Origin: Escherichia coli
Lineage (GTDB): Bacteria; Pseudomonadota; Gammaproteobacteria; Enterobacterales; Enterobacteriaceae
DNA length: 64,000 bases
Assembly: GCF_003334335.1 (NCBI RefSeq)
Contig: NZ_QOWQ01000010.1
Strand: one strand, 5' to 3'
Shown: piece after piece, positions 11,240-12,124 of the stretch
Layout of the letters: the number at the start of each line of letters is the position of its first letter
How positions within the stretch are numbered: position 1 is the first letter of the stretch
Program-made: the position numbers and the translations under genes
The notes under the pieces: generated by a model
Told to the model about the DNA's origin: nothing
The model's database searches: none
What the model saw: only the letters and a program-made list of their open reading frames with translations

Positions 11240-12124
11240 TTACTTTGTAATGAGATCGGGGTCAACTTCGCTTAACCGGCTTCGTTTTGACAGGTTGCCG
11301 GTCTTTCTTTTTTTCACTTTCGCCAGTTCTTCCGCAGAGTAATGCGACGCGACATCCAGCCGTCGAAGCCCCATTTTGATGTACTCGCTGTTGATCTCAA
11401 TACCAATGAATTTTCGTCCGCTGGCGATGGCTACGGCACCGGTAGTAAAGCTACCAGCAAACGGGTCGAGAACGATATCGCCTGGGTTGGAAGAGGCGAG
11501 AATAATGCGTTTCAGTAAGGCTTCCGGTTTTTGCGTCGGGTGGTTTTCATATTCATCCATCAAATAACGCACGCGCGGAAAATCCCAAACGTTACCCGGT
11601 ACTTTTTGATGATTGTAAGGCTGTGGAGGATTTTTGCGATAATCGATCAACGCGCGCTGCGATCCGGTTTTGGCTTCTACCAGAATAGCATCACCGTTGA
11701 ATGTGTAGTTCTTTGCGTCTTTCACCATCATCAGGATGGGTTCGTACATGGAGCCGTAGTGTTTTTTCGCCTGCACTCCAGAACTGTCATATGACCAGAC
11801 GATGCGACTTTTGATGGTAAAAAGCTTGCGGCACTGGAGATCGATAAAGGGCATGTTTTCCGTACTGTTCATGATGTACATGCTGCCCTGCTTTTTCAGA
11901 ACGCGGTGGCACTCTGCAATCACTTCAAACAGCCAGTCGATAAACAGATCTTCTTTCCAGGCTTCGATCAGACCATCAAAATTTTTACCGATGTTATATG
12001 GTGGGTCGGCAAAGATCAGATCGACACTTTCGGCGGGGATCTTTTTAAGTTCGGCAAGCGCATCACCGTGAATAATGGTCTTAGCTTCATTACCAAACCG
12101 GGTCGGTTCACATCCTGTTCTCAT
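11240..12124 (-). CDS. yhdJ: DNA N6-adenine methyltransferase (orphan, beta-class amino-MTase)
   Basis: ORF with catalytic DPPY motif (FADPPYNIGKNFDG) and AdoMet-binding motif (VLDPFAGSFTTG); no adjacent restriction endonuclease. Confidence 0.92.
   Translation of the reverse strand: MRTGCEPTRFGNEAKTIIHGDALAELKKIPAESVDLIFADPPYNIGKNFDGLIEAWKEDLFIDWLFEVIAECHRVLKKQGSMYIMNSTENMPFIDLQCRKLFTIKSRIVWSYDSSGVQAKKHYGSMYEPILMMVKDAKNYTFNGDAILVEAKTGSQRALIDYRKNPPQPYNHQKVPGNVWDFPRVRYLMDEYENHPTQKPEALLKRIILASSNPGDIVLDPFAGSFTTGAVAIASGRKFIGIEINSEYIKMGLRRLDVASHYSAEELAKVKKRKTGNLSKRSRLSEVDPDLITK

Follow-up and report, generated by a model that had tools for sequence, protein, structure and literature searches.

The 64,000-nucleotide stretch analyzed here (the window) carries the gene yhdJ of Escherichia coli. 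Taken as a whole, the evidence makes it very probable that yhdJ encodes M.EcoKII, an ATGCAT enzyme and the orphan of an EcoT22I-type restriction-modification system that was inserted once after fis and lost its nuclease, and that the gene is poorly expressed or inactive in K-12 and does not act as a regulator. YhdJ is a solitary beta-class S-adenosylmethionine-dependent methyltransferase that modifies N6 of the second adenine in the palindrome ATGCAT. Under the explanation preferred here, an EcoT22I-type system would have landed a single time, directly behind the fis terminator, in the ancestor shared by Escherichia, Citrobacter and Salmonella, and later have lost its nuclease gene without trace. 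Purifying selection has kept yhdJ intact.

The yhdJ gene and its product

The yhdJ coding sequence (11240..12124, minus strand) runs from an ATG at 12124 to a TAA stop at 11240-11242 and specifies a 294-aa protein, which the open reading frame, the sequence and the K-12 annotation identify as M.EcoKII, a beta-class N6-adenine DNA methyltransferase. The longest open reading frame opens at an in-frame GTG at 12130, 5' of this ATG. Alignment indicates that ATG 12124 is the start common to the enteric orthologues, with a possible GTG in C. amalonaticus, and ATG 12124 rather than GTG 12130 is taken as the start codon. The coordinates match exactly those of the MG1655 annotation, 'yhdJ: adenine-specific DNA-methyltransferase'. 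A 1.6-kb region around yhdJ shares 100% nucleotide identity with E. coli K-12 MG1655 and many other strains and was found in all 5426 complete E. coli genomes searched; judged by its sequence, the window is E. coli K-12.

The annotated gene order is acrF-acrE / acrS / yhdU / yhdJ / fis / dusB / prmA / panF. Upstream of yhdJ and in the same orientation lies fis (12210..12506, minus strand), which is considered here as context only, outside the methyltransferase unit; its stop codon starts at 12210, leaving an intergenic gap of 85 bp. The downstream neighbor is yhdU (10977..11156, minus strand), encoding a 59-aa DUF2556 membrane protein. The G+C content of yhdJ (~0.45-0.48) is slightly under that of the flanking dusB and prmA genes (~0.51-0.55), and no sharp island signature was seen in base composition around yhdJ. 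A sequence-only reading of this DNA had placed a solitary N6-adenine methyltransferase gene, yhdJ, at 11240-12124 and immediately 3' of fis. Both statements are confirmed, as the interval is exactly that of the annotated coding sequence and the two genes lie on the same strand across the 85-bp gap. The gene is already known and characterized as M.EcoKII, and the feature is real but ordinary.

Elsewhere in the window, positions 1-351 hold the tail of an rRNA operon, in which a tRNA (annotated tRNA-Thr) accompanies two 5S rRNA copies, the first partial and the second complete. Four tandem copies of Rfam naRNA4 (nucleoid-associated noncoding RNA 4) are found on the plus strand at 31397-31739, with a spacing of ~91 bp. 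On the minus strand at ~3711-4735, upstream of yhdX, the K-12 annotation gives the gene for an amino-acid ABC transporter substrate-binding protein as a frameshifted pseudogene; this gene is intact in E. coli LR-25.

YhdJ matches Pfam PF01555 (N6_N4_Mtase) at 3e-64, where residues 34-251 correspond to positions 1-218 of the 221-position model, and the NCBIfam equivalog NF008572 'adenine-specific DNA-methyltransferase' at 589.5 bits against a curated cut-off of 292 bits, where residues 1-294 correspond to model positions 1-294. Catalytic motif IV, DPPY, occupies residues 40-43 and AdoMet motif I, DPFAGSF, residues 220-226; the succession of motif IV, target-recognition region and motif I is the circularly permuted arrangement of the beta class. 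Both motifs are intact, which bears out the earlier description of a clear DPPY motif and AdoMet site in an active-type enzyme. The third glycine of motif I is Phe in YhdJ, giving FxGxF in place of FxGxG. Among 81 aligned sequences, DPPY is invariant in 81 and DPFxGxF is present in 80, the exception being a sequence cut by a contig end. The possibility that FxGxF marks a defective AdoMet motif was rejected, since it is found in every sequence from which motif I was recovered (80/81), nuclease-linked ones included.

Among solved structures, YhdJ is closest to CcrM (PDB 6pbd; 3.6e-33, residues 10-265), and the next matches are other beta-class enzymes, for example M.MboIIA and M.RsrI. PADLOC returns the MTase_II model PDLC03299 as best match at 517 bits, and the only orphan-methyltransferase model among the 25 matches shown for YhdJ scores 140 bits. 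Caulobacter CcrM, which acts at GANTC, and YhdJ are both orphan beta-class N6-adenine methyltransferases of PF01555. In contrast, YhdJ scores 135 bits against the CcrM equivalog NF050803, for which the cut-off is 830 bits, and it has a different site, is non-essential and has no known cell-cycle role. The alignment covers residues 11-267 of CcrM (366 aa), and YhdJ (294 aa) lacks a counterpart to the last ~100 CcrM residues. The C-terminal extension of CcrM beyond the methyltransferase core is a DNA-binding domain. YhdJ is CcrM-like at the level of class only. A second comparison is offered by Dam and Dcm, which, like YhdJ, are solitary and chromosomally fixed with a similar enteric host range (PMC4444293). 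Dam is a highly active alpha-class enzyme with roles in mismatch repair, replication and phase variation, whereas YhdJ has no demonstrated role.

Restriction endonucleases beside relatives of yhdJ

Relatives of YhdJ were surveyed with one genome per species, using the best 80 of 435 confirmed matches. Non-enteric relatives account for 56 of these loci and include Pseudoalteromonas, Marinobacterium, Oceanisphaera, Nostoc/Anabaena, Prochlorococcus, Pseudomonas, Paraburkholderia, many Bacteroidota and some Clostridia. Inspection of these 56 loci reveals a full-length conserved open reading frame (~340-395 aa) directly 3' of the methyltransferase gene in 42 (among the best 80 of 435 matches), convergent with it in Proteobacteria and cyanobacteria and co-directional in Bacteroidota. 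Another 7 of the 56 carry a partial copy of the nuclease (4 at a contig end, 1 fragmented), and the last 7 carry none; these nuclease-less relatives are scattered through the tree. PADLOC calls the linked open reading frame REase_II (PDLC03455, 2.5e-70) and is alone in recognizing this nuclease family, for which no sequence match was found in Pfam, NCBIfam or the PDB.

A profile of the nuclease family, built from 21 neighbor proteins of YhdJ relatives, scores 290-590 bits in the 42 non-enteric loci. Applied to all six frames of the 64-kb window and to 9 enteric loci, the same profile gave no match (best E-value 1.6), in agreement with the earlier statement that yhdJ has no restriction endonuclease partner here. 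The locus holds a methyltransferase homologous to that of a characterized ATGCAT system of the EcoT22I/AvaIII/NsiI kind and has no adjacent cognate nuclease. The position at which yhdJ relatives carry the endonuclease gene is occupied by yhdU. A nuclease remnant, whether in the 265-bp yhdJ-acrS interval, in yhdU itself or anywhere else in the window, was considered and rejected, as the profile found nothing. The only PADLOC match of YhdU (DUF2556) was a marginal one to KwaA (E = 0.0047, 14.9 bits), which most likely reflects a likeness of hydrophobic membrane segments.

The nuclease family is also found on small mobilizable plasmids of E. coli, Klebsiella and Enterobacter, in cassettes where the type II nuclease gene lies beside one for a helix-turn-helix C-protein and converges with a methyltransferase gene auto-annotated 'yhdJ'. 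Such C-R-M cassettes lie at 2771-4906 of the E. coli plasmid pEC22 (NC_025058.1) and at 1972-4107 of the plasmid NZ_AP027820.1. In PMC5052281, pEC22 is listed, with reference to Elhai et al. 1994, as 'a plasmid coding for MR.EcoT22I'. The pEC22 methyltransferase, M.EcoT22I, is 76% identical to YhdJ over 267 aa and shares with it the DPPY and DPFxGSF motifs as well as the fold class. The two differ in their setting: M.EcoT22I is encoded convergently to its cognate nuclease and beside a C-protein gene on a mobilizable plasmid, whereas YhdJ is chromosomal and has neither partner. Among 5426 complete E. coli genomes, 3 contain an EcoT22I-family C-R pair, each time on a plasmid of 4-6 kb. EcoT22I, AvaIII and NsiI are isoschizomers that all recognize ATGCAT. 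M.AvaIII methylates NsiI sites (PMC7489255). A literature search found no paper mentioning both yhdJ and EcoT22I.

In a neighbor-joining tree, the 25 enteric sequences form one clade nested among nuclease-linked lineages, and the sister of this clade consists of marine gammaproteobacterial and cyanobacterial sequences. We infer that yhdJ is what remains of a type II restriction-modification system of the EcoT22I/AvaIII/NsiI kind, namely its methyltransferase half. The claim of a single insertion draws on the best 80 of 435 confirmed matches and on this tree, which carries no support values.

The fis terminator and the yhdJ leader

The junction between fis and yhdJ is present in 24/24 Escherichia, Citrobacter and Salmonella loci (75-98% identity to YhdJ; among the best 80 of 435 matches), and the full order dusB-fis-yhdJ-yhdU-acrS is found in those 24 enteric loci wherever the contig reaches far enough. 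No fis gene was found near yhdJ relatives in any of the 56 loci outside these three genera (58-72% identity; from the same best 80 of 435). The conserved linkage to fis, which the sequence-only reading had called intriguing, is therefore real within the 24 enteric loci but absent in 56 other relatives; moreover, a terminator lies between the two genes, and deletion of dusB-fis has no significant effect on yhdJ.

An intrinsic terminator of the dusB-fis operon, identified from RNA folding and enteric conservation, occupies 12145..12190 (minus strand). It consists of an 11-bp G+C-rich stem (AAAAAGGCGCU...AGCGCCUUUUU) followed by a U-run, ~24 nt 5' of the yhdJ start, and the RNA of 12120-12215 (minus strand) folds at -29.5 kcal/mol (z = -3.1). 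A simple terminator scan missed this element, whose loop exceeds 8 nt, and RNA folding revealed it. In 11 sequences from Escherichia, Citrobacter and Salmonella, neither the hairpin nor the U-tract varies, apart from one base deleted from the loop in C. amalonaticus, and conservation falls sharply right after the U-tract. The distance from the U-tract to the yhdJ start is 22-28 nt in the aligned enterics.

The yhdJ leader (12125..12144, minus strand), by direct reading, contains the Shine-Dalgarno sequence AAGGGAG ~5 nt before the ATG, and a scan reported no sigma-70-like promoter site in the fis-yhdJ gap. The stretch from the terminator to the start codon is too short to hold a separate promoter. 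Because yhdJ begins ~24 nt after a strong terminator and the gap contains no promoter-like site, expression through read-through, or from a weak promoter embedded in the terminator, is suggested. Native yhdJ in K-12 is very poorly expressed or inactive, and the probable reason is this placement close behind the terminator together with the lack of an evident promoter belonging to yhdJ. The terminator alone cannot explain the silence of K-12, since Salmonella has the same invariant terminator and short leader yet methylates ~60% of its ATGCAT sites. Deletion of dusB-fis in E. coli did not significantly change yhdJ expression, in an imperfect test where the control strain carried a cat cassette between fis and yhdJ (PMC4751926).

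The linkage of yhdJ to fis is clade-restricted and is best read as the footprint of one insertion beside a terminator. Functional coupling is a poorer explanation of the linkage than one insertion in an ancestor, and the position of yhdJ next to fis is historical rather than functional.

An abrupt shift in evolutionary regime is observed at the fis terminator (window positions 12125-12215 and flanking genes). Between genera, fis and dusB have dS values of 0.05-0.3, and yhdJ, yhdU and acrS are saturated at synonymous sites. The Fis protein is 100% identical across the enteric loci; between genera, YhdJ is 75-81% identical, and the products of yhdJ, yhdU and acrS taken together range over 62-87% protein identity. 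In a separate enterobacterial locus with an identical Fis (GCA_043358095.1, 5400-10297), phage-like genes lie 3' of fis in place of yhdJ, among them a 786-aa tape-measure-like open reading frame, a 314-aa capsid-like open reading frame and an AAA_25 protein. The position 3' of fis may be one where insertions recur.

Activity and retention of YhdJ

Published work provides the specificity of the enzyme and the consequences of its loss. Overexpressed YhdJ (M.EcoKII) methylates the second A of ATGCAT, producing ATGC(m6A)T and blocking NsiI cleavage, and deletion of yhdJ in E. coli K-12 gives no detectable phenotype, both as recounted in PMC4444293 from Broadbent et al. 2007 (J Bacteriol 189:4325). 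SMRT sequencing of strain ER2796, in which yhdJ is intact, yielded no ATGCAT signal above a control motif for the native K-12 gene, and yhdJ was inactivated as a precaution in the cloning strain ER3413, with the aim of a methylation-free host (PMC4444293). In S. Typhimurium, methylation at 513/513 methylated ATGCAT sites is gone upon deletion of yhdJ (PMC9239280). The Salmonella deletion alters 12 genes in LB and 0 in SPI-2 medium, only one altered gene has a methylated ATGCAT site, and there is essentially no effect on growth, motility, macrophage infection or mouse fitness (PMC9239280). About 61% of ATGCAT sites are methylated in Salmonella, with more sites methylated in mid-exponential phase than late in stationary phase, whereas Dam and Dcm sites show the reverse, and differentially methylated ATGCAT sites have no association with expression (bioRxiv 2026.01.27.702048).

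These reports already contain the experiments that the sequence-only reading had proposed, namely methylomes of yhdJ deletion and overexpression to define the motif, together with RNA-seq; the motif is ATGC(m6A)T. That reading had also named a lack of yhdJ-dependent modification under any condition as an outcome that would overturn it, and the ATGCAT methylation of Salmonella is instead yhdJ-dependent (PMC9239280). Its suggestion of an epigenetic regulatory role did not survive, given the 12 genes in LB and 0 in SPI-2 medium affected in Salmonella with essentially no fitness or virulence effect, and the K-12 deletion without phenotype. YhdJ is not a global transcriptional regulator.

Avoidance of the recognition site within the window was considered and rejected. 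The 64-kb window contains 9 ATGCAT sites, compared with 11.0 expected from a maximal-order Markov model or 15.3 from base composition, and the observed-to-expected ratio is the 32nd lowest of 64 six-base palindromes, an unremarkable mid-rank position in a sample of a size that affords little power.

Within Escherichia, yhdJ has a dN/dS of ~0.05-0.15; between genera, dN is 0.13-0.16 with dS saturated. The gene is present in 5418/5426 complete E. coli genomes, with at least 80% coverage in 5388/5426, and is kept across >9000 Salmonella genomes, where most S. Paratyphi A strains have a copy truncated at codon 151 (PMC9239280). By these measures, yhdJ is kept intact under purifying selection, which implies some function. 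In E. coli LR-25 (NZ_AP027500.1, locus positions 4001-5083), IS1 truncates yhdJ after ~66 codons, the stub is mis-annotated as 'RsmD family RNA methyltransferase', and yhdU, acrS and acrEF are deleted up to a yhdW homologue.

The pattern of selection and activity bears on whether yhdJ is a functionless relic drifting toward a pseudogene, which we regard as highly improbable. Some observations fit decay: yhdJ is silent in K-12 and its deletion is without phenotype in the account of PMC4444293, YhdJ diverges faster than the products of fis, dusB and prmA (75-81% versus 93-100% identity between genera), and losses do occur, as with IS1 in E. coli LR-25 and the codon-151 truncation in most S. Paratyphi A (PMC9239280). 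However, the dN/dS of ~0.05-0.15, the conservation of catalytic and AdoMet motifs in enteric loci where readable, the full-length gene in 5388/5426 E. coli genomes, and an enzyme that is active when expressed and natively active in Salmonella (PMC4444293, PMC9239280) largely refute this account. A different proposal makes the linkage to fis functional, with yhdJ transcribed by read-through of the fis terminator such that ATGCAT methylation tracks the early-exponential burst of fis. The spacing of only ~22-28 nt from U-tract to yhdJ start in enterics and the gap devoid of promoter-like sites are compatible with such coupling, and so is the growth-phase dependence of ATGCAT methylation in Salmonella, which is higher in mid-exponential than in late stationary phase, opposite to Dam/Dcm, and matches the exponential-phase expression of fis (bioRxiv 2026.01.27.702048; PMC4751926). 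We nevertheless consider coupling rather doubtful, as a strong, unvarying terminator stands between the genes, only one clade shows the linkage, transcription is hardly altered when YhdJ is lost (PMC9239280), and yhdJ did not change significantly upon dusB-fis deletion, measured against a control with a cat cassette in the gap (PMC4751926).

YhdJ methylation might also shield the chromosome from incoming EcoT22I-type plasmids, blunting both restriction attack and post-segregational killing. Takahashi and colleagues reportedly made an analogous proposal in 2002 for Dcm against EcoRII. Consistent with such immunization, the small mobilizable plasmids in circulation in E. coli, Klebsiella and Enterobacter include carriers of EcoT22I-family C-R-M cassettes with a methyltransferase 76% identical to YhdJ, these cassettes are very rare in E. 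coli (3/5426 complete genomes), yhdJ is under purifying selection while lacking a regulatory phenotype, and a defense-related role for YhdJ was raised by the authors of PMC9239280. The proposal is unlikely all the same: the native K-12 gene gives no detectable ATGCAT methylation (PMC4444293), methylation of ~61% of sites in Salmonella makes protection incomplete (bioRxiv 2026.01.27.702048), and the plasmids may be rare for many other reasons. Quite improbable, in our estimation, is the more specific version in which YhdJ is retained as a genomic 'vaccine' against EcoT22I-type ATGCAT plasmids and is expressed via fis-terminator read-through that peaks in rapid growth.

The explanation we prefer, descent of yhdJ from an EcoT22I-type restriction-modification system, is a new but modest and unsurprising addition to what is established for this gene. 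Such an origin accounts for the linkage to fis as history rather than function, and, as to the conservation of yhdJ, it points to conflict with restriction-modification plasmids and away from gene regulation. If true, the 'vaccine' reading would explain selection on a gene that has been without a clear function since 2007.
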